A DNA stretch of 64,000 nt, taken from the IMG/VR virus record IMGVR_UViG_3300008262_000099. One strand, written 5' to 3'. The stretch's first letter is position 1. Every line of letters starts with the position of its first letter. A program made the position numbers and the translations under genes. A model generated the notes under the pieces. It had not been told where the DNA came from and did no database searches. It saw only the letters and a program-made list of their open reading frames with translations. Shown one piece after another: positions 9,184 through 58,917 of this stretch. The stretch comes from an uncultured virus (IMG/VR IMGVR_UViG_3300008262_000099). Lineage: Duplodnaviria; Heunggongvirae; Uroviricota; Caudoviricetes.

Positions 9184-10424
9184 TGGCAGCTGATAATGAA
9201 CTTCGTCTTCTGTCTAGAGCAATTAGAACACGGGATATATCTCCACTTCTTGAGGCTGGTGTAAAAGGTGACTGGTTCTTTGTAGAAGACAATAGATCAG
9301 TATGGAATTTCGTAGTAAATCATTGGACTAAATATCAAGAAGTTCCTACAGCTGTGACTGTAAAAGATAACTTTCCTACATATAACTTACTTGCTGTAGA
9401 TGATTCACTGGATTATTTATTAGATCAATTAATTGAATATCGTAAACGTCAAAAAACTATTGATGTAGTACAGGCTGCAGCAGAAGCAATTCAAGGCGGA
9501 GATCATGATGCAGCTATCGCTGCTATGAGTGTTGGCGTTGCCAAGATTGCAGACGAAGGCATAAAAGATTCTGGTGATATCGATCTTACGGACAATGCAT
9601 CACAGCGTTTTGATGAGTATCTATCTATCAAGACTAGACCAAACGGTTTGCTTGGTATGGCTACCGGGTTTCCTACAATCGACAAGGCTACTGCCGGATT
9701 ACAGCCAGGCCAGTTAGTAACAATTATTGCTCCACCAAAGACAGGTAAGTCTGTCCTTGCAATGCAAATTGCAGTTAACGTCCACGAAGATGGTTTCGTA
9801 CCCATGTTCCAATCATTTGAGATGACTAACATTGAGCAACAACATCGTCACGACGCAATGCGTGCCAAGATTGCACATTCTCGCTTGATTCGTGGATCCT
9901 TAAATCAACAAGAAGAAGCTCGATATAGAGCAGCACTTTCAAAGATGGAAAGTATGCACAACTTCTATCTAACTGACGCAGTACCTTCAATGACGGTTAC
10001 GGGTCTTGCTGCCAAGATTGATAAGCTTCGTCCCAATATAGTATTTGTAGACGGTGTTTACCTTATGTTAGATGAAATCACGGGGGAGATTAACACACCT
10101 CAATCTATTACAAATGTCACCCGTAACTTAAAGAAATTAGCAATGTCCAAAGAACTTCCAATGGTTATCTCTACCCAGGTTCTTCTTTGGAAGATGAAGA
10201 AGCGCCAAGTTTCGGCGGACGCCATTGGATATTCATCTTCGTTCTACCAGGACTCAGATGTAATCCTTGGTCTACAAAAGCAAGATGAGAATGACGATAC
10301 ATCTAGAGAGTTAAAAATTGTTGCAAGTCGCAACTGCGGGCCAGCATCCACTGACCTGTTATGGGATTGGGAAGAAGGGAAGTTTGAAGAGTATGGATCT
10401 CTATTTGGAAACACATCCATTTAA
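9183..10424 (+). CDS. dnaB: Replicative DNA helicase DnaB-like
   Basis: TGFPTID, APPKTGKS, SFEM, VFVDGVYLM, SSSFYQDSD, SRN. Confidence 0.9.
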   Translation: MAADNELRLLSRAIRTRDISPLLEAGVKGDWFFVEDNRSVWNFVVNHWTKYQEVPTAVTVKDNFPTYNLLAVDDSLDYLLDQLIEYRKRQKTIDVVQAAAEAIQGGDHDAAIAAMSVGVAKIADEGIKDSGDIDLTDNASQRFDEYLSIKTRPNGLLGMATGFPTIDKATAGLQPGQLVTIIAPPKTGKSVLAMQIAVNVHEDGFVPMFQSFEMTNIEQQHRHDAMRAKIAHSRLIRGSLNQQEEARYRAALSKMESMHNFYLTDAVPSMTVTGLAAKIDKLRPNIVFVDGVYLMLDEITGEINTPQSITNVTRNLKKLAMSKELPMVISTQVLLWKMKKRQVSADAIGYSSSFYQDSDVILGLQKQDENDDTSRELKIVASRNCGPASTDLLWDWEEGKFEEYGSLFGNTSI

Positions 10425-10650
10425 CGGCAAACAAAGCTGTAAAGACGCAGACCCTGAACTATTTTTTCCAGATGACGAGGGGATGTACGCAGACTTAGAT
10501 AAAGCTAAGAGCATCTGCAAAGACTGTCCGCTCACCCTTGATTGCCTTGCATACGCAGTACGCCACCCAGAGTTAGAAGGTGTGTGGGGTGGCACAACAT
10601 CTAAGGATCGCAAATACCTACGTCGAAGGAGGGTACGTGTCACCACTTGA
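10393..10650 (+). CDS. whiB: WhiB-family transcription factor
   Basis: C..DPELFFP, CKDCP..C, GVWGG, basic tail. Confidence 0.9.
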   Translation: MDLYLETHPFNGKQSCKDADPELFFPDDEGMYADLDKAKSICKDCPLTLDCLAYAVRHPELEGVWGGTTSKDRKYLRRRRVRVTT

Positions 10651-19894: not shown

Positions 19895-20201
19895 GGGTAA
19901 AAAAGAGTCCCTAAAGCACGAGAAGAGGCTAGCCAAAAAAATAGGCGGGCAACGCAGTGCTGCTTCGGGGGCGTTTTGGTCTCGTAAAGGGGATGTAAGA
20001 AACGACAGCCTCCTCATAGAGCATAAGTGGACTGGAAAAAAACAGGTCACCATTAAGTCTGAAGTGCTCAAGAAGATCACCAAAGAGGCGATCCTGGATA
20101 GTCGTAAACCAGTGCTAGGATTACACCTAGACGGTGAGAATTATGTAGTCCTATTAGAGGAGGATTTTTTTGAGCTGCACAACTTAATAGTGGGAGACTG
20201 A
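19884..20201 (+). CDS. Holliday junction resolvase-like PD-(D/E)XK nuclease
   Basis: HE..LA, SGA...KGDV...IEHK. Confidence 0.75.
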   Translation: MESRGKKESLKHEKRLAKKIGGQRSAASGAFWSRKGDVRNDSLLIEHKWTGKKQVTIKSEVLKKITKEAILDSRKPVLGLHLDGENYVVLLEEDFFELHNLIVGD

Positions 20202-20566
20202 TGGACGAATACCAGGACAGAGTGTCTTGGGCGTGGAGATATGAGGCTAAGTGCCGAGGAGAAGATACGGAAATATTTTTTCCGCCACGAGACAAAACTT
20301 TATATAAAGAGATAGCAGACAAAGCTAAGGCTATTTGCTGGGGCAAAGATGGGAGACCTCCGTGCCCTGTACGTAGAGAATGTTTAAAGGAAGCTATCAT
20401 TAATGATGAACTACATGGAATTTTTGGCGGCATGTCTCATAGAGAAAGAAATGCAGCTAAGCGTCGGTATACCGCCAAGGGTTTAAGCTTAGACCAGTGG
20501 CTTGATTCGGAGGACAAACGTGGTAAAAAAGGCGATACAAAACAAGGAGCTAAAAAGCTTCCTTAA
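20201..20566 (+). CDS. whiB: WhiB-family transcription factor (second copy)
   Basis: AKC..IFFPP, C..(insert)..CPVRREC, GIFGG. Confidence 0.85.
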   Translation: MDEYQDRVSWAWRYEAKCRGEDTEIFFPPRDKTLYKEIADKAKAICWGKDGRPPCPVRRECLKEAIINDELHGIFGGMSHRERNAAKRRYTAKGLSLDQWLDSEDKRGKKGDTKQGAKKLP

Positions 20567-47572: not shown

Positions 47573-48136
47573 CTACTTTAGAAATAGACTGAGTTGTCCA
47601 TTTTCTTTTGCTGCATTCAGCGTGTGCATTGCTACCAATTTGTTGTTTAAAACTAATTGTTGATAGATAACTCCAGGCATGCCTTTCTTTATCGCATCAA
47701 CAATAGTCCAAATGGTTGCGCCTACTTCCGCTGGTTTAGAGCGTTTGATTACTTTTACTGCAAAGTCTTTGCGTTCCAAAGCAAAAGCAATTGACGCTGC
47801 ATACTCTGTAAGAGTTTTGAGCGTGCTGCTTCCATCTGGTGTGCTTCTTAACCATGCGGCAAAAGTGTAAAACAAATCATCAATAGCGGTATCGTTGCCA
47901 TTATTTACTGACTCCAATACTTCTGTAATGATTTCTGCTGTTACTGCTTCACGAAATGACTTGCTTGCTTCAGACAATGCTACAAAACCTTTAGGCATAG
48001 TATTGCTGTAGACAATGATGTTAGTGCATTCCGTTACAAGTTCTTGAGCTGATGATGTTTCTGGATTGTTCAAAGGTAATTCATAGATTTGAACTCCAGA
48101 AGTTATCGGATCAAACTCAACTGATGTTTGGGACAT
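47573..48136 (-). CDS. Hypothetical protein
   Basis: 187 aa ORF. Confidence 0.5.
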   Translation of the reverse strand: MSQTSVEFDPITSGVQIYELPLNNPETSSAQELVTECTNIIVYSNTMPKGFVALSEASKSFREAVTAEIITEVLESVNNGNDTAIDDLFYTFAAWLRSTPDGSSTLKTLTEYAASIAFALERKDFAVKVIKRSKPAEVGATIWTIVDAIKKGMPGVIYQQLVLNNKLVAMHTLNAAKENGQLSLFLK

Positions 48137-48830
48137 ATGCTGCTATCGCTTTCTCTAGTTCGCTTGGTTTGTTATTAACAAGAGTGCCGTGTTGTAATCG
48201 CAAAGGTGTTCCGTCCCATAGCATAGTTACTAACTGACTGCCATAGTCTTTCTTACCATAACCGTTACAACCAAAGCACTTCTCTGTTTTTGTTGTGTAA
48301 TGGTTTGTACTTAAACCATGAACACACTTGTGTCTGTGCCATCCGCCATTCAGTTTTGAAATTGTAGCGGGCATGAGAGTTGTTTTATCGCACTCTTCAG
48401 AGCCCAGCGAATGACAATACGGAATAGTGCAATAGCCATCGACAAGTCCAGCGCCATGACAGCGCCTGCACTTTTGTATCTTTGGTGGTTTTCTTGTTGC
48501 ATCAGCTAACACAATGTGAAACTTATTGTTTCTTTGATACAAACTAGTAATTCCTGAATACATTCGAATTACTTCTCGAACACTCCAAGAATAGAGGGGG
48601 TTGTAATACCCACCCCACCTTGTTCGTCCAAGTCCAGCCTGTATTGTTATTGTGTCATCTGGATGGAATACGACAACTGCTTGATTAGTCCAAGGATAAA
48701 AGACTTCGATGTCTTTTGGATTTGCTTGGGTTTTGCGAAGCCGTAGTCCACGAGTGTAAAGTGGGCGTTCCCACTTTTTGCGACCGCCTGCTAACCAGTC
48801 GACCGCTTCTTGATAGGTATTGATAATCAT
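48117..48830 (-). CDS. Protein with DnaJ-type CxxCxGxG zinc motifs
   Basis: CRRCHGAG and CFGCNGYG. Confidence 0.6.
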   Translation of the reverse strand: MIINTYQEAVDWLAGGRKKWERPLYTRGLRLRKTQANPKDIEVFYPWTNQAVVVFHPDDTITIQAGLGRTRWGGYYNPLYSWSVREVIRMYSGITSLYQRNNKFHIVLADATRKPPKIQKCRRCHGAGLVDGYCTIPYCHSLGSEECDKTTLMPATISKLNGGWHRHKCVHGLSTNHYTTKTEKCFGCNGYGKKDYGSQLVTMLWDGTPLRLQHGTLVNNKPSELEKAIAAYVPNIS

Positions 48831-49123
48831 TAGATTACCTCTTTCTCACGATTGAGATACTCGAACGTGCGTTCCCTCTCTGCTTCTCGAATGCGGGCAA
48901 GTTCTTTTTTGGATACTTGCTCGTCTTCTTCGAACCAATGAATAGAAATGGGGAACCTTCTTGCTCTATTTGGTGATAGAGCATAGAGAATGTCTCCCAT
49001 TCCGTCAATGACTCCAGAGTGGTAGGCACGACTGTGCATGTCGTCTAAGTCCTGAGCATCTATCTCAGAACGAAGCATCATGTCTTCAATCAGTTTGAGA
49101 ACTTTCTTCTTTCTCAGTATCAT
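48830..49123 (-). CDS. Hypothetical protein
   Basis: SD GAAAGG. Confidence 0.55.
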   Translation of the reverse strand: MILRKKKVLKLIEDMMLRSEIDAQDLDDMHSRAYHSGVIDGMGDILYALSPNRARRFPISIHWFEEDEQVSKKELARIREAERERTFEYLNREKEVI

Positions 49124-49139
49124 GTGTGCCTTTCTGCCA

Positions 49140-49740
49140 CGTGCTACCCACTATGGATAACACGAGCGTGCCAATGTAAACTTTGACATCTACATTGGCG
49201 GACTAGATTAGACTGCTAGCCCAGTTATTGGGTATGGACAATCGTGAACACGCAGTGTTCGTGCTGCCATCCAACTTGAACTTGGAAACACATTGAATTA
49301 CTGAAGGTATTATCGTGAGACTCACAACGTGGCCTCTGTTGCGTTGTAGAATTACATACATAGTCTCGGTCGCGTCTCTTACTATGCATCTACGCTCATT
49401 ATGGGAGGACTAACGTGACCCACTGGGTGCCTCTGACCCCATAGTTCGTACCCTTATGCTTCTTCGCCCCCTTTGTATTCAGACATAGTCTCCCGAATAC
49501 ATACTCAGCTCTCGGTGATAATCAACAGCCTATTCAATGTGTCTCCAAGAATCTATAAGCAGTTTTTAGTGAGTCATGCTCAGGACTCAGGCATTCGCCC
49601 CATGCAATAACATCTATTACTGTCTGTAATAGGAATGTAACGCACTTATTGGTAGCCGGGCAATTCCCATTCCCGTTTACCCCTTATTTATAGTCGTTGG
49701 TTACGACTCCCTTCCTTTCGATGCATGCATCTACTAGGCG
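49140..49740. ncRNA. Candidate large structured non-coding RNA
   Basis: About 600 nt without a listed ORF; 18-bp long-range stem and many local hairpins. Confidence 0.55.
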
Positions 49741-49743
49741 GAA

Positions 49744-50109
49744 TTACTGTCTGTTGAAAGCAACAGAAAACTGCGTAAAGAATGCAGCGATTTTGAATCC
49801 AATTTGATGCAATGGATACAAATGGTCAGACTCTTCGTTACCTTTTGTATTCCATGAACGAGCATCAAATGGAGTTGATAAATCCAAATCTAACTTGAAT
49901 AAACTGTCTGTAAATCCAAGCATGATTTCAAAACCATAATCATATTTAGCCTTGGTTGTAAAGTGAAACGCAAAACCTCGGCCGTTGTATGGGTCATAAA
50001 GACGATAAAACTTGAACCCAGGAATAGCATTATCTTTCATGTTTTGTTCAACATCATCAAAGAAACTATCCACATCGGGATAATCCATGATTGTTCTACC
50101 TTCGTGCAT
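49744..50109 (-). CDS. Hypothetical protein
   Basis: SD GAAAGG; preceded by pseudoknot motif. Confidence 0.55.
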   Translation of the reverse strand: MHEGRTIMDYPDVDSFFDDVEQNMKDNAIPGFKFYRLYDPYNGRGFAFHFTTKAKYDYGFEIMLGFTDSLFKLDLDLSTPFDARSWNTKGNEESDHLYPLHQIGFKIAAFFTQFSVAFNRQ

Positions 50110-50254
50110 TTGTGTCCTTTCTTTTGTAGTTGATAAGCAGTTTATCCCTTCACATGCTTAGGTGACGAGTCGCGTTATTACCTCAGGTAACCGACTAAAA
50201 AGACCAACCACACATCTACCTCTCATGGATAGCCTATTCGTGTGTGCGGAAGAT

Positions 50255-51001
50255 TTACATACCTTTTACTGATTCAAGTTGCTTCTTGAGTTCGTCTTGC
50301 TGTGCCTCTAACGCAGCAATTTTCTTCTTCTTGATTTCTTCTTTGGCTGTTGCCAAGAATGAGGCTAATTCTGCTGCCTCATCAAGAGTCAATGAAATAG
50401 TGCGGAACCCGACCGTTACTTCGACTTCCATACTATGCTCATTTATTTCATATTTGAGGTTTTTATCGTCGCATTCACGTTTGCAATAGCAATACGATGG
50501 GCGACATCCTTTTGGACACATTTCTTCTGTCACCTTCCTTTCTTTTACTAGTCCATGGGCTTTCATCATGCTGTCTCTATGCCACGCAGCAAAGTGCTTG
50601 TCATACGTAGACGCTCCTTCTTCAATAAAAAAACGTGCTTCTATTCTACTTATTTCGTAGAAGCAATCGTTTTCTTCATCTCTCGCAAAACGAGAAGTCC
50701 AAGAAAAGTTGTAACTCTTTTCTCTTACGTAATCTAAAGGAACAATACGATAAAGCAACAAGGTGTCTGATCTATGACGTTTGCCGCAACCAATAGTTTT
50801 AATACACCAATTAACATCTTCATCCTTCAACGTTCCGGGATACTCTAGAAGATAGTTTCGGTATTTATACCATTCGCTTGTTGCAGAAACTTTATGGTAT
50901 TCACTAATTGATCTACGAGACCAACCATACGAACGACCATTCAAGAACTCACGTTCTACCTCTGCTAACGTAGGAAGTTTGTTTTCATTTTCAACTTCCA
51001 T
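50255..51001 (-). CDS. Hypothetical protein with C-terminal coiled coil
   Basis: ATG at 51001 after GAAAGG. Confidence 0.55.
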   Translation of the reverse strand: MEVENENKLPTLAEVEREFLNGRSYGWSRRSISEYHKVSATSEWYKYRNYLLEYPGTLKDEDVNWCIKTIGCGKRHRSDTLLLYRIVPLDYVREKSYNFSWTSRFARDEENDCFYEISRIEARFFIEEGASTYDKHFAAWHRDSMMKAHGLVKERKVTEEMCPKGCRPSYCYCKRECDDKNLKYEINEHSMEVEVTVGFRTISLTLDEAAELASFLATAKEEIKKKKIAALEAQQDELKKQLESVKGM

Positions 51002-51078
51002 GTTTGCCTTTCTTCTGCCTGTGTTATGAAACACAGACAGACAGAGCAACACAGGAAAGCCTGTGATGCCCTGTCCAA

Positions 51079-51285
51079 CTATCTTCCACTTGACCTACCC
51101 CCTGTGTAAACAAAAGGGTCTGTTTTATTTACTATTGTGTAGCCCTGTTTAGGAACTAGTATCAAACACATGCGTTCGGTTAGTTCTGATGGGCGATTAT
51201 TGAAGCATTGTTTCTTCATGCAATAGGTGTAGCCAAGGTCCCATCTTTCTGGGGCAACTGGCTCACCACATGAGTCACAGAGCAT
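51079..51285 (-). CDS. DksA/TraR-like C4 zinc-finger small protein
   Basis: CDSCGEPV..ER...G...C...C. Confidence 0.5.
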   Translation of the reverse strand: MLCDSCGEPVAPERWDLGYTYCMKKQCFNNRPSELTERMCLILVPKQGYTIVNKTDPFVYTGGRSSGR

Positions 51286-51427
51286 GGTTCTCCCTTGATT
51301 TGCTTATTTGTTATTATTGATACAAGAAAGCGGTGTATCTCCGCTTCTAACTTAGAATGTATAAAAGCCAGCTGCTGAAGGCTAATCTCACCTTCAACAG
51401 AGGCTTTTATTTCTAGTTGTGTTTTCA

Positions 51428-51694: not shown

Positions 51695-51740
51695 TGTGTT
51701 CTCCTTTCTGTTAGTTCTTCATCTTATGGGGAAAGTCGGG

Positions 51741-51803
51741 GAAAAACAAAAAAAAATAAGCCCCTTCAACTTATAGTCGAGCAACTATAAATTGAAGGGG
51801 CTC
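51741..51803 (-). terminator. Strong intrinsic terminator
   Basis: AGCCCCTTCAA.TTATAGT / ACTATAA.TTGAAGGGGCT stem followed on the minus strand by a long T-tract. Confidence 0.85.
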
Positions 51804-51852
51804 TTCCCCATTGCGCAGCAAAAACTTCGCGGGGACCTTGTTGGTCATTACA

Positions 51853-51987
51853 TTAGTCAGTTAGGTCATAAAGACCTGGTTCAACTCTCTCAATACGCTC
51901 TCGGTTATAACGACGAAGGCGAATAAGATTGAGGATTGTAAGATAGGCGATACATACAGCACCGCCAAATAAAACAAACTCAAGCAT
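51853..51987 (-). CDS. 44-aa single-TM peptide (not in ORF track)
   Basis: SD AGGAG; MLEFVLFGGAVCIAYLTILNLIRLRR... Confidence 0.55.
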   Translation of the reverse strand: MLEFVLFGGAVCIAYLTILNLIRLRRYNRERIERVEPGLYDLTD

Positions 51988-52189: not shown

Positions 52190-52692
52190 AACGACCTCCT
52201 TTCTTATAGCCAAGAGCATACACAGGAATAGGCGTTGATCCAACAAGGGTAGAAAGGTGTAAACCCAAGTGTTATAGCCGACAGGAAAGGGGGTTCTTCC
52301 TATGTATGCTCTAAGCCATAAGGTATAGAGATACACGCCCCAACCGACAAATGAAAGGGGTCGGCGGGGGCGTGTTCTCTACTTAGACAGAAGACACAAG
52401 ATAAGGTTTAGGTAGCCTACATACGAAGGGAGAAAAGCAGACCGACAAGGCTACTCTTACCAATAAAGGCAATTCGCATTGTTTAGGTCACTCCCTATCT
52501 ATACCCATAGTTATCCGCCGACTATTGGAGTAGGCGAACTATCTGCTAATAGCGAAAGCGGTAATCTCTAGACCTGCTCTTACTCTCAATGATGAGAGTT
52601 CGCTAGAAGCAGTAGCCAAATGCTAACTATGAGCATAGATAGGGGCAGGGAGAGCCTAGACTCCCCCTGCCATGTGATTTACATCACGATTA

Positions 52693-53199: not shown

Positions 53200-53494
53200 C
53201 TCAAATCCTTTCTGTCTTCACCTATACGAGGTGTATAGGCTAGTGAGCACCCCGACCAATGCTACAAATGCTGTCGAGGTGCTCCACGCAGTAGGGCTAC
53301 CTAACCTGAACTTTTGGCGTTTGCTGAACCGACCCCCTTAGAAATCGATTTGCCACCCCCCACCCTTAGCGCCCCAACTTCCCACCTTTCGGGCAGGTAA
53401 AACAAACTGCTACGACCTAAAACACAAGGCAGTGGCCGGATAACTCCAGGGTCTTAGCATTTCAGGCAGTAGCCGGGGGAGTATCATATTTTTC

Positions 53495-56104: not shown

Positions 56105-58917
56105 TGGCAAAAAAGAAAAGAATAACTAAGAAGGCTGCAGCTACTGCACAAAAAAGAGTTGCAAAGAGTCTTAGTAATAAACCAAAAGTTGAGAAACCAG
56201 AAGTAGTAAGAGACAACACTGGTCTTGAAGCTAAACTTAACGATCCTAGACCTTTAGGTTACGGGAATACTTTAGTTCCACAAACTGAACGTGGAGAAAC
56301 CGGTTTAGATCCTAGAGATGTAGCCGCCGATGCTGCAGATGTTGCAACCGTTAAAAAACTTGAAGCAGAACCACCTACAGTAAACCCAACCCTTACTGCA
56401 CTTGTACAGGGACGACGTAGACAACAAAAAGCTGCTGAAAGCTCTAGAGTAGTTCCTCTTGAAGAAGCTGTTGCTGGAGTTGAAGCACAAGCTAATCGAG
56501 GAGATTTTCCAGAACCTACCCCAGGTCAAGAACGCATTCAAGAAAGCCAACGTGGTGGAAATACGGGCACAGGCAATATTGATTACAGGTTTTTACCTGC
56601 AACCCCACCAGAACAAAAGCCAGCAACTCCTGGTTTAATTGGAAAATTTACTGCACGTGCAGGGCGCGGAGCTAATCTACAAAACCCTCCCCTAGCTGTA
56701 AGTCAAGGAGAAGGTCAAACTAACGTAATTAACTCTACTGCACGTCGTCTTGCAAAAGGATCACTAATTGATAACGGTGTTGAGCCTACAGATGAGAATG
56801 TTACTTCAGAGTTAGTTAACAACACCTCGCACGAACAAAAAGCAAGAGTTATGGCTTACACAGGTCTTTCTCACGATGACATTCTTAATTACATGGGTAA
56901 AAATGAACGCGAAGGAAGAACCCGTTTGGGTACCCTTCACGAAACTGTTATGCAGTTCCACCGTTCTCGTCAAAAACATGACGTAACACGTGAGATGGGA
57001 CTTGTACGCAACAATGATGGCTCTTTCACAGCTACTCCAGATGCAGACAATCAATATTGGCAACATCCAACTGAAACCGTAAAAGTAAACGGATTAGATG
57101 TCAAAAAAACCTATCGAGTTTCTGACATGCACCCGGACATGGTAAAAGAATTAACGCATCCATCCGGATGGGGCGGACACAGTGGAAATGCAGACTTTGA
57201 AGGTGTAACCGGATCCGCTGCTTCTGGAACTGCTTCTCCAGTAATTAACCGTTTTGGTCACGTTAAGTCAGGCCCAAGAAATGCAGAAACTTGGAGATTC
57301 CAAGCTCCACCTCCGGGTTGGGGAGAAGATTCTTCTATTGAAGGTATTAAATCTGATCACATTACAATGCTTGGAAGTGGCATTACCCCAAACGTTATAA
57401 ATCTTGTAGAACGAGTTCGTCAAGGATATAAAGGCTCTGTTGATTTAGGTACTGCCGAAAAACCAAAGAGGTCTAGTGGCGAATTAACTATTAGTAAAGA
57501 AAACGATGATGAAATTGAAACTGAAGGCGATCGCAGCAGAAAACGTCGTTTATTCCGATCAGTAACACGAGGAGCCCCTAAAGAAGGTCCAGTAGGTGGC
57601 ATGTTCTATACCTCTCCAGAAGGTTTTAGAGTAGATGCTGAAGGTGTTGCTAAAAGAGGGCAGGCTCAAGGGGTTAATATTCCTTCTACAAGCGTGCCTG
57701 GTCCAGGATTTACTAACGAAACTGAATACGTAGAAGAAAAGTTTAAGAAGCCTAGAAAGAAAAAAGAAAAAGGCGCAATTGTTGGACTAAAGGGTGAAGG
57801 CATACCTGCAGGCTTTGATGATGCCAATAACCCAGTACCACTACCTCCTCGTGCAGGACGTCGTGGCGGCACTACCGTAATCGTTGACCCAGAAACTGGA
57901 AAGCGATCACAAAGACGTGCTGTGCTAGTAAGACAAACAGGTTTACAAACTTCTATGAGGTCTGCTGCAGAATCTTCTGCAGAAGTGCTTGTTGGACAAA
58001 ATGAAGTTGCTGAAGAAATTTTAAAGGGAAATAGAAGTCAACAGTTTAGACAACTAGTTCAACCACCAGCACCTACTGGAAGAGCGTTTATGGGTCCACC
58101 ACCAAAACAAGAGGTTATTGACTTTGGAACTGCTAATCTTTCATTAGGTGAATCAAAGCGTACCGCACCAGACATAGTAAGACAAATAGTAGAGGGACCT
58201 GTTAGTAGAGTTCAATACAATATGGAGCAGGCAGCTACTGGTGGTACCGGATATTTTGAAAAATATGTTGGAAATTCTGATAAAAAAGAATTGGTTACAG
58301 AACCAATTCCACAATCAACGAGTGCAACTATTAGGAATAGTGTTCAAGACCCAACGTATGGAAAAGTAACCTACATGCCGGAATTACCTGAGCGAGAAAA
58401 GGAAGAGAATAAAGTTCCTACTGGGGCTATCGGTCAAAAAGAGTTTAAGCAAATTACTGCTAGACAGCAAAGAGAAGACGAGGCAGACGCCGCTGTCAAA
58501 GCAGCTAGAGCAAAAGCTGATGAGTCAAGAGCTCCACTTCCTGGACAATACATGTTTAATTTCCAAGATCCTGCAAAACCTGGCGCTATGATTAGTCGTC
58601 AGTTACTTGGGGGAACTATTCGTCCTCTAACAGATGCAGAAGCCTCTGTTGAACAGAGCGGTTGGAATACCGTTCGTGGTATGAACCCACGAGGTATTAA
58701 AGATCGTCCTACTCAACAAACCCCACCTAGTTCTGGTACCGCACCTCAGGTTAATAAAGGTGAAAGACTGGTTCGTAGTGGAGATGTTGAAACTGGTCAA
58801 GAAGGTATTGCAGTTGTAGGTAGTGATAAAAAAACTGGAGACACCGCTGTACGACGACTTAAGGGGCCTAAAGAATCTGTTCGTAACGAAAGAAATGCTG
58901 GCAAGAAGAGAAGCTGA
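56104..58917 (+). CDS. Large, probably disordered hypothetical protein
   Basis: 937 aa, no Cys, rich in P/G/E/R/K/T. Confidence 0.6.
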   Translation: MAKKKRITKKAAATAQKRVAKSLSNKPKVEKPEVVRDNTGLEAKLNDPRPLGYGNTLVPQTERGETGLDPRDVAADAADVATVKKLEAEPPTVNPTLTALVQGRRRQQKAAESSRVVPLEEAVAGVEAQANRGDFPEPTPGQERIQESQRGGNTGTGNIDYRFLPATPPEQKPATPGLIGKFTARAGRGANLQNPPLAVSQGEGQTNVINSTARRLAKGSLIDNGVEPTDENVTSELVNNTSHEQKARVMAYTGLSHDDILNYMGKNEREGRTRLGTLHETVMQFHRSRQKHDVTREMGLVRNNDGSFTATPDADNQYWQHPTETVKVNGLDVKKTYRVSDMHPDMVKELTHPSGWGGHSGNADFEGVTGSAASGTASPVINRFGHVKSGPRNAETWRFQAPPPGWGEDSSIEGIKSDHITMLGSGITPNVINLVERVRQGYKGSVDLGTAEKPKRSSGELTISKENDDEIETEGDRSRKRRLFRSVTRGAPKEGPVGGMFYTSPEGFRVDAEGVAKRGQAQGVNIPSTSVPGPGFTNETEYVEEKFKKPRKKKEKGAIVGLKGEGIPAGFDDANNPVPLPPRAGRRGGTTVIVDPETGKRSQRRAVLVRQTGLQTSMRSAAESSAEVLVGQNEVAEEILKGNRSQQFRQLVQPPAPTGRAFMGPPPKQEVIDFGTANLSLGESKRTAPDIVRQIVEGPVSRVQYNMEQAATGGTGYFEKYVGNSDKKELVTEPIPQSTSATIRNSVQDPTYGKVTYMPELPEREKEENKVPTGAIGQKEFKQITARQQREDEADAAVKAARAKADESRAPLPGQYMFNFQDPAKPGAMISRQLLGGTIRPLTDAEASVEQSGWNTVRGMNPRGIKDRPTQQTPPSSGTAPQVNKGERLVRSGDVETGQEGIAVVGSDKKTGDTAVRRLKGPKESVRNERNAGKKRS

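Follow-up and report, generated by a model that had tools for sequence, protein, structure and literature searches.

The question raised by this locus is what 620 nucleotides (nt) of intercistronic DNA are doing between two small genes of a phage, and whether they act as RNA. The locus lies in a 64,000-nt stretch of DNA from an uncultured virus of the Caudoviricetes (IMG/VR record IMGVR_UViG_3300008262_000099), which was analysed at its full length and is called the window here; it matches a virus record (G001) of 104,454 nt with a completeness rating of 100%. The intercistronic stretch occupies positions 49124..49743, is read here as RNA of the minus strand, is flanked by open reading frames (ORFs) at 49744-50109 and 48830-49123, and is the longest among the 11 window gaps of at least 250 nt without an ORF of at least 80 amino acids (aa). 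An earlier note on these letters had proposed one large non-coding RNA (ncRNA) of about 600 nt, closed by an 18-bp helix and representing a new phage class. In our analysis the stretch very probably is a real structured RNA, composed of modules. What is new here is a large structured phage RNA built as a pseudoknot head plus a closed domain in a 3' untranslated region (UTR), outside GOLLD, ROOL and any Rfam family. We know of few large folded phage RNAs and of none with a known function; the present one is compact and clear in architecture, its genomic setting is defined, and lake metatranscriptomes show signs of its expression, which makes it testable.

The helix-closed domain and its strand

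The central domain spans 269 nt (49281..49549, minus strand) and is closed by helix P1, in which 49549-49532 pairs with 49298-49281. The two 18-nt arms are 94% complementary at a spacing of 233 nt, and the sole non-Watson-Crick position is a G-U on the minus strand, so that the 18-bp closing helix holds as proposed. An 18-mer inverted repeat with at most one mismatch appeared in none of 300 dinucleotide shuffles of the 620-nt gap. Folding of the whole gap gave -203.8 kcal/mol for the minus strand (z -5.2) and -186.8 kcal/mol for the plus strand (z -3.1), and on either strand none of the 20 shuffles was as low.

Four sequences from three lineages were aligned over the domain, which yielded 73 consensus pairs in 10 helices. 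In the consensus architecture P1, P1a (49529-49526 with 49303-49300) and P2 (49523-49518 with 49314-49308) enclose the branches P3/P3a (49509-49466), P4/P4a/P4b (49448-49395), P5/P5a (49393-49346) and P6 (49336-49317), all on the minus strand. Compensatory changes on both sides were found in 19 of the 73 pairs, as compared with 0-3 when the partner was slid by 1-3 columns, and paired cells reached 96.9% against 32-41% under the same sliding; on each of five pairing measures none of 500 shuffles of the domain alignment attained the observed value. Two of the compensatory pairs (U-A to C-G and A-U to G-C) fall in the inner part of P1, which is invariant between the first two lineages. The whole gap, aligned between these two lineages, gave 134 pairs in RNAalifold, 24 of them with both sides changed (mean 14.3, maximum 21 in 60 column shuffles), and a minus-strand consensus energy of -119.2 against -59.2 (standard deviation 6.1) in 60 column shuffles, z -9.8. 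Conservation by compensatory change is seen in both alignments.

The strand evidence, which had been called mixed, is instead clear for the minus strand. The consensus fold of the plus strand reaches z -4.75 in the two-lineage alignment, and one-sided changes of the G-U type number 24 on the minus strand and 5 on the plus strand. Of the 292 paired cells of the domain, 31 have G-U on the minus strand, which on the opposite strand would be A-C.

Most of the nested stems picked out in the earlier note recur as consensus helices: TTATC/GATAA is P2, GTAGA/TCTAC is P5, CATAGT/ACTATG is P5a, TATGGG/CCCATA is P4 and TGTATTC/GAATACA is P3a. The sixth, ACAACG/CGTTGT, is an alternative that excludes P6, and five of its six pairs persist in the other two lineages. 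The window does contain the duplicated ACATAGTCTC, which the other lineages do not retain. Invariant across lineages are the junction strands AAUAGGCU, GAAGAAGCA, AUGUAUGUA and GAGUCUC. As a side observation, the core of the P5a loop (49366-49379, minus strand) is self-complementary in the three lineages (CGCG, CAUG, CGCG), a faint resemblance to kissing-loop dimer sites in one of many loops inspected.

Two explanations that would make an RNA needless were weighed against these data. A missed or decayed protein-coding gene might be suspected from the minus-strand ORFs of 52 and 54 aa in the gap; these have no colinear counterpart in the second lineage (L006), where a conserved small ORF was looked for, the indels between lineages are not multiples of three, and conservation tracks helices, not codons. 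We regard the coding explanation as scarcely credible. Very improbable as well is an element acting at the DNA level, be it a miniature inverted-repeat transposable element (MITE), a replication origin or a pair of protein-binding sites. An 18-bp inverted repeat around 233 bp is of MITE size, and folding beats the shuffles on either strand; the consensus fold of the minus strand is far stronger, its G-U cells would be A-C on the other strand, the interior helices covary, and there is one copy per genome without target duplication, the flanks TTGAA and AATCT not being repeats.

Known families did not account for the locus. Searched with cmscan against Rfam 15 at gathering scores, the whole window gave no match; at E <=10 the region 48800-50400 gave just five chance matches to models of small nucleolar RNAs and microRNAs, and at E <=1 nothing was found in the domain in the homologous regions of L006 and L255, the latter from the third lineage. 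Models for group I and group II introns, RNase P, transfer-messenger RNA, 6S and Y RNA were unmatched in the window, L006 and L255, and the flanking ORFs do not form one interrupted gene, as the gene upstream is a different one in each lineage. Neither did blastn with the 'distant' setting match any of 50,697 phage records, and literature searches with motif strings and words turned up no account of this RNA, nor of the phage pseudoknot treated below.

The comparison with GOLLD (RF01998) and ROOL (RF03087), drawn in the earlier note, goes no further than size and phage origin, since no match to them appeared even at E <=10. All are large, multi-branched, ORF-free, phage-borne, kept by covariation and of unknown function. 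GOLLD and ROOL have about 580-800 nt and stand beside transfer RNA (tRNA) genes in phages or prophages. The domain differs from them in having about 270 nt, in lying in an operon behind a gene in a window without tRNA (ARAGORN), and in being found in three closely related lineages only.

Lineages and modules of the gap

The domain was found in three lineages, represented by 8 IMG/VR records. Two further IMG/VR contigs carry identical copies. The second lineage (L006, L007) has the whole gap in common with the window, at 66% identity over 653 aligned columns, together with a downstream 97-aa gene of 90% amino-acid identity; its upstream gene, of 168 aa, is unrelated. The third lineage (L252, L255), obtained by a block-pattern scan, shares with the window the helix-closed domain only, at 74% identity over 257 nt, and is about 80% identical to L006 over 269 nt. 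The fold there has z -6.2 (0 of 100 shuffles), and P1 is extended to 25-27 bp. In this lineage P1 begins 44 nt past the stop codon of a 67-aa gene (homologous to ORF 51079-51285 of the window), and the domain is followed by a small hairpin, then by a canonical terminator (GC-rich stem and U-run) about 35 nt behind, and then by a gene of 166 aa.

A single RNA class of about 600 nt is therefore not upheld: the 269-nt helix-closed domain is all that the three lineages have in common, and the supposed 600-nt RNA is modular, made up of a leader, the domain and, on the 3' side, a hairpin module. The domain is an autonomous conserved unit, with flanks and neighbour genes that vary between lineages; its identity is 74-80% at the nucleotide level, as against 31-79% at the amino-acid level for the neighbouring proteins. 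The genes upstream of it are mutually unrelated (121 aa in the window, 168 aa in L006, 67 aa in the third lineage), and those downstream are the 97-aa gene in the window and in L006 and an unrelated 166-aa gene in the third lineage, so the 97-aa gene accompanies the RNA in two of three lineages.

A covariance model of the domain recovered exactly one copy per genome with 250-303 bits, the next match having E 1.9. No domain was detected by nhmmer and the covariance model in the 79 other loci that bear the pseudoknot, and three further pattern scans of IMG/VR returned the same six records or chance matches in coding DNA; the extra loci were discarded as such chance matches (L010, L137, L139-L145, L148, L257, L259-L261, L264, L267).

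At the minus-strand 5' edge a pseudoknot had been described, and it is borne out as a small H-type pseudoknot and a member of a widespread motif family (49555..49587, minus strand). Stem S1 pairs AGUC (49587-49584) with GACU (49575-49572) around the loop CUGAGCAU, and in S2 the loop letters GAGC (49581-49578) pair with GCUU (49560-49557) behind an A-rich linker. Judged from the letters of its many copies, the likely fold is a 4-bp S1 closed by C-G, the loop CUGAGCAU, the A-rich linker and a GAGC loop pairing with downstream GCUY. The 16-mer AGUCCUGAGCAUGACU (49587-49572, minus strand) was matched in at least 122 IMG/VR stretches. Among the matches listed, 93 of 99 unique 16-mer instances have AAACUGCUY or AAAAGGCUC 1-37 nt downstream, and the spacer once contains an inserted hairpin. 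S1 is well supported: as by-catch in the flanks of fetched loci, 17 instances with 11 other stem sequences were fully complementary (CCAC/GUGG, UAUC/GAUA, UCUC/GAGA, UGUC/GACA, UCAC/GUGA, GGAC/GUCC, UUUC/GAAA, AUUC/GAAU, CAUC/GAUG, UAAC/GUUA and AGCC/GGCU), the remainder of the by-catch being five partly paired and seven chance-like instances.

On GTDB contigs about 30 of 97 instances of the 16-mer were true pseudoknots, in records titled Butyrivibrio, Selenomonadales (three copies), Geobacter, Methylococcaceae, Pedobacter, Verrucomicrobiota, Saccharibacteria and others. Rfam has no family covering the pseudoknot, as checked on the window locus and 10 further pseudoknot loci. PMC10690425, to judge from the part drawn on here, catalogues 8,495 IMG/VR candidates of 29-151 nt, and the pseudoknot may already be listed there.

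Elsewhere the pseudoknot stands 5' of ribosome sites and of tRNAs in unrelated phages, and here it stands 5' of the domain. The window has a second copy at 50135..50165 (minus strand), UCAC-CUAAGCAU-GUGA-AGGGAUAAAC-UGCUU, 25 nt ahead of the ribosome site of the 121-aa gene; in it the stem (UCAC/GUGA) and the loop-to-tail pairing (AAGC/GCUU) are altered in step. A descriptor of the motif matched these two sites only, in the window and in the whole of G001, with a mean of 0.27 and a maximum of 2 in 30 shuffled windows. The L006 lineage also has two, one ahead of its 168-aa gene (S1 UGUC/GACA) and one ahead of the domain. The pseudoknot stands at the head of varied cargo: the 121-aa gene and the domain here, the 168-aa gene and the domain in L006, ribosome sites and tRNAs elsewhere. 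A promoter of T7/T3 type was considered for the 16-mer and dropped, given a spacer of 1-37 nt that may contain a hairpin, a covarying stem and only two copies in the genome; a likeness of UGCUCUUUAA to boxA was dropped too, few instances showing it.

This small pseudoknot may matter more than the domain. Its loop is near-invariant, its stem covaries freely, it is always 5' of a functional unit and absent from Rfam, and its spread covers phages of Firmicutes, Bacteroidota, Proteobacteria, Verrucomicrobiota and Actinobacteria. Should it turn out to be a portable element that marks RNA boundaries or confers stability, a feature seen in many phage operons would be accounted for, and RNA engineering would gain a useful part.

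Several loci with the motif were recorded in passing. Three or more copies within 1.3 kb, each ahead of a gene, occur in L057/L058, L087/L088 and L171 (phages and one Selenomonadales contig), and in L057 the same ACUACUCAACUCAAC comes after every copy. L196/L197 (a 3-kb contig of a metagenome-assembled genome of Thermoplasmata), L182 and L191 show two true copies on a short archaeon-binned contig, each before a Shine-Dalgarno site; such a contig is probably a mis-binned phage fragment. In a 160-kb IMG/VR contig, L015:1596-1920 (minus strand) matched bacterial RNase P RNA class A at full length but weakly, with 39 bits (gathering 100) and E 4e-9; it adjoins five tRNAs, and a pseudoknot lies between two of them.

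The four hairpins described in the earlier note as flanking the domain were all found in their places. The 5' leader module (49588..49743, minus strand), common to the window and the L006 lineage only, includes a small hairpin GAUG-CAUG-CAUC (49720-49731), a hairpin GUCG...CGAC (49692-49708) with AUAAAUAA behind it at 49684-49691, and the hairpin CUAUUAC/GUAAUAG (49614-49632), all on the minus strand. Among the matches listed, 27 of 109 other pseudoknot instances have a GUCG..CGAC..AAAUAA hairpin 6-9 nt ahead, the distance being about 90 nt in the window and in the L006 lineage. By these letters the 5' part of the gap is an expanded copy of a modular leader that ends in the pseudoknot and is common in unrelated phages. 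A second pseudoknot, formed from the GUCG..CGAC loop, is plausible in L006 (UGCUC with GAGCA); it would have 3 bp only in the window, and a covarying alternative hairpin competes with it. A late promoter of T4 type, TATAAATA at 49684-49691, was dropped, L006 reading GATAAATA and the wider family NNUAAAUAA.

The 3' module (49124..49280, minus strand) is conserved in L006. It contains the hairpin GAACAC/GUGUUC (49246-49260) and the conserved hairpin GCCAAUGUA-GAUGUCAAAGUU-UACAUUGGC (49170-49199), both on the minus strand; ACGUGGCAGAAAGGCACAC, a block that is likewise conserved, and the start codon of the 97-aa gene also belong to it. The flanking hairpin GCCAATGTA/TACATTGGC covaries in L006 and in the metagenome contig L136. 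The latter was among the matches listed in a metagenome scan with the 97-aa protein alignment, as was L135, identical to L007. L136 encodes a 97-aa homologue of 52% identity with a WhiB gene inserted, and retains just the 3' hairpin; this reads GCCNAUGUR-GAUGUCAWAGUU-YACAUNGGC with ACGUGGCAG behind it, and its changes are compensatory. At L136:1636-1690 this hairpin and ACGUGGCAG precede a short ORF and the WhiB gene, not the 97-aa gene, which argues that the hairpin is a module in its own right, possibly an operator. The 3' module was also considered as the site of a sigma-70 promoter for the 97-aa gene, an idea rejected because no -10 element is conserved in L006.

Expression and the fate of the transcript

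Presence in RNA could be assessed in public sequencing runs, of which 20 of the 24 listed contain the stretch or part of it under the labels freshwater, lake or aquatic metagenome (four are labelled fungus metagenome). Six of them, from six studies, are RNA libraries, that is to say metatranscriptome runs, which contain 44-75% of the sampled words. RNA contigs were placed on the stretch for four of the six (X15-X18). In X15 they cover 49283-50510 at depth 146, 48127-49162 at depth 13.5 and 50533-50958 at depth 18; in X16, 49281-51018 at depth 90 and 47800-49091 at depth 77; in X18, 49369-49983 at depth 26.8 with flanks at depth 2.5-8; and in X17 a single contig, 47800-49493 at depth 55, bridges 49281 and leaves 49494-49739 uncovered.

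Contigs of two studies end at the 3' arm of P1 (49281..49298, minus strand), at 49281 and 49283. That they stop within 2 nt of the P1 base gives a weak hint of an RNA 3' end there; a minus-strand RNA ending at 49281 would read ...CCAAG, with UUCAAG next. Directly before 49281 the X16 contig has the letters CTACACGACGCTCTTCCGATCT, which we take to be the end of an Illumina adapter, and if so, many inserts would begin exactly at 49281. Little or no contig cover of 49163-49280 was seen in three of the four runs (X15, X16 and X18), although holes in cover prove nothing.

The reading that we prefer, at a probability of roughly 45%, is that of a modular RNA device in a 3' UTR between cistrons of an actinophage operon, read from the minus strand, whose folded domain ends and protects an abundant transcript. 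The domain would be transcribed as a continuation of the upstream messenger RNA (mRNA), and the transcript would end, or be cut by an endonuclease, right 3' of P1 (...CCAAG|UUCAAG); in the third lineage it would end about 60 nt farther, at the canonical terminator. The closed domain could then shield the 3' end from 3'-exonucleases, so that domain-bearing RNA accumulates. At the 5' side the pseudoknot would be a boundary or roadblock ahead of the following unit, whether ORF, tRNA or, as here, the domain, for instance against 5'-end-dependent decay by RNase J or RNase E of the actinobacterial host. The invariant junction strands would most likely bind a protein or make tertiary contacts, by which the stable RNA could have a function of its own.

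A number of points weigh against this reading. The X17 contig crosses the proposed end at 49281, stops within the domain and gives no cover of 49494-49739. Contigs cannot show ends, strand or level, and DNA carry-over in the libraries is possible, even though the ten-fold depth steps between adjacent contigs argue for RNA instead. The window has no canonical terminator past P1: an intrinsic terminator scan of the minus strand over 48700-50400 found none, and P1 is followed by UUCAAGUUGG. A 3' end exactly at the helix base is unusual for intrinsic termination or for stalling of polynucleotide phosphorylase, and a simple stabiliser would need no 230 nt of conserved interior. The predicted fold draws on four sequences from three lineages, and its derivation from the same alignment favours it over the controls with slid partners. 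As for the pseudoknot, S2 is weakly supported, by an AAGC loop facing GCUU in two of two cases, and non-GAGC loops had a downstream complement in 2 of 16 instances, as compared with 5 of 16 in a reversed control.

The nearest competitor takes the domain for a free-standing trans-acting ncRNA, either excised by a 5' cut behind the pseudoknot and a 3' cut at the P1 base or made from its own promoter, and acting on a factor of the host or the phage, as a decoy or scaffold or by self-assembly in the manner of GOLLD and ROOL. This we hold possible, if somewhat unlikely. It would suit the autonomy of the domain and its better conservation relative to the neighbour proteins, the invariance of the junction strands, the contig termination at the P1 base, and the fact that the domain fills the slot which a gene or tRNA takes behind the pseudoknot in other phages. 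The self-complementary P5a loop core would suit it as well, with the reservation that this palindrome was picked from many loops. No RNA contig, however, starts near 49549-49590, and those of X15, X16 and X18 continue into the upstream gene; a promoter scan found no consensus site ahead of the domain, and the 44 nt between stop codon and P1 in the third lineage leave no room for a promoter. Nor do the same run-on contigs, or the third lineage with its domain placed 44 nt past a stop codon and a terminator behind, support a free-standing RNA gene.

That terminator could also be taken as a mark of a cis-regulatory sensor, riboswitch-like or a protein-binding attenuator, which would control the gene behind: the order in the third lineage is domain, 35 nt, intrinsic terminator and next gene, and a downstream strand there, GAGGUAGAUAC, is similar to the outer 5' arm of P1, with which it could compete in pairing to the 3' arm. 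The mutually exclusive ACAACG/CGUUGU stem and P6 would offer a switch, and in the window the conserved block of the 3' module extends into the ribosome site of the 97-aa gene. This explanation is distinctly unlikely all the same, as the terminator is present in the third lineage only and missing behind the domain in the window and L006, the gene downstream is not constant (the 97-aa gene in two lineages and an unrelated one of 166 aa in the third), other hairpins fill the 160 nt between the domain and the 97-aa start, and no riboswitch family matched in Rfam.

The position of the contig breaks at P1 bears on yet another candidate, a processing site for RNase III. The early RNase III sites of T7 (R0.3 to R1.3) are intercistronic helices that set mRNA 3' ends and stabilise the upstream RNA. 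A cut in P1 would by this model separate the cistrons and leave a stabilising 3' hairpin, the interior being dispensable. The intercistronic placement in an operon of small genes is alike, and P1, with 18 bp here and 25-27 bp in the third lineage, extended by P1a and P2, is long enough for about two helix turns. The T7 sites are, in contrast, simple hairpins of about 60 nt, and the present helix encloses 230 nt of conserved branched interior, whose sequence and pairing are kept across lineages and would be needless for a mere cleavage helix; the observed end lies at the helix base and not within the helix, and the outer part of P1 is free to vary in length and sequence. We consider such a site improbable.

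The preferred reading, of a device that ends and protects a transcript, gives the pseudoknot the part of a 5' boundary, and this invites comparison with RNA elements of eukaryotic viruses. The part of PMC10520033 drawn on here describes the coremin element xrRNA_C as an Xrn1-resistant element of plant and other RNA viruses. It resembles the phage pseudoknot in a short GUC...GAC hairpin, a spacer ending in AAACUNC, a second helix behind and the placement at an RNA boundary; the spacer letters are GUCCGAAGACGUUAAACUAC in coremin and AGUCCUGAGCAUGACU..AAACUGCUC in the phage motif, and a helix or hairpin often stands behind the phage element too. The differences are several. The coremin loop consensus given in that part of the source is YGAD/YGNNAD (PMC10520033), from which the 8-nt phage loop CUGAGCAU departs with U and not G at position 2. 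The coremin spacer has 8-10 nt before the second hairpin, as compared with 22 nt between the first hairpin and P1 in the window and 1-37 nt between the first hairpin and AAACUGCUC across instances. Bacteria, the hosts of phages, lack Xrn1, and nuclease resistance is by this analogy a candidate property of the phage pseudoknot. With the subgenomic flaviviral RNA (sfRNA) left by exonuclease stalling, as far as it is covered in the literature drawn on here, the likeness is conceptual, a folded 5' block and a structured 3' region leaving a stable ncRNA from a longer transcript; there is no structural likeness, and the phage RNA contigs continue upstream of the pseudoknot.

A bolder combination, which we regard as doubtful, would be that the five-branch domain of about 270 nt is a new trans-acting class of phage RNA, which an early mRNA would release as a 3' fragment proof against nucleases and which would bind, or assemble on, a host factor, and that at the same time the pseudoknot corresponds, in phages, to the RNAs of eukaryotic viruses that resist exoribonucleases, as a portable obstacle to 5'-end-dependent decay which phages of many phyla put before genes, tRNAs and ncRNAs. 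If both parts were true, the locus would be a phage analogue of sfRNA production.

Genomic setting and lesser features

The gap is surrounded by small minus-strand genes, a block in which nothing matched Pfam or PHROG, and the closest annotated genes are an AAA_5 ATPase and a VWA protein. Two WhiB-family proteins of G001 exceed the Pfam cut-off (window plus strand 10318-10650 and 20201-20566; G001:67914-68102 and 58076-58297), and the host is therefore most likely an actinobacterium. The upstream ORF of 121 aa (49744..50109, minus strand) belongs to no family and has matches only in identical records, its position being occupied by different genes in L006 and in the third lineage. The downstream ORF of 97 aa (48830..49123, minus strand), also of no family, has homologues at 58-92% identity. 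Its AlphaFold model is all-helical with a mean predicted local distance difference test score (pLDDT) of 61, and hence too poor for a fold search.

More gaps without an ORF of at least 80 aa, 285-375 nt in length, lie within or head the same minus-strand operon (51053-51427, 51695-51979, 52337-52692 and 53200-53494), and the covariance model of the domain found no copy in these four. Finally, a hairpin CACACA...UGUGUG at 50213-50250 (minus strand) has GAAUAGGCU directly behind its 5' arm, and identical letters follow the 5' arm of P1 in the domain (ACACAUUGAAUAGGCU); the hairpin may be a small relative of the domain, or the agreement may be a coincidence.

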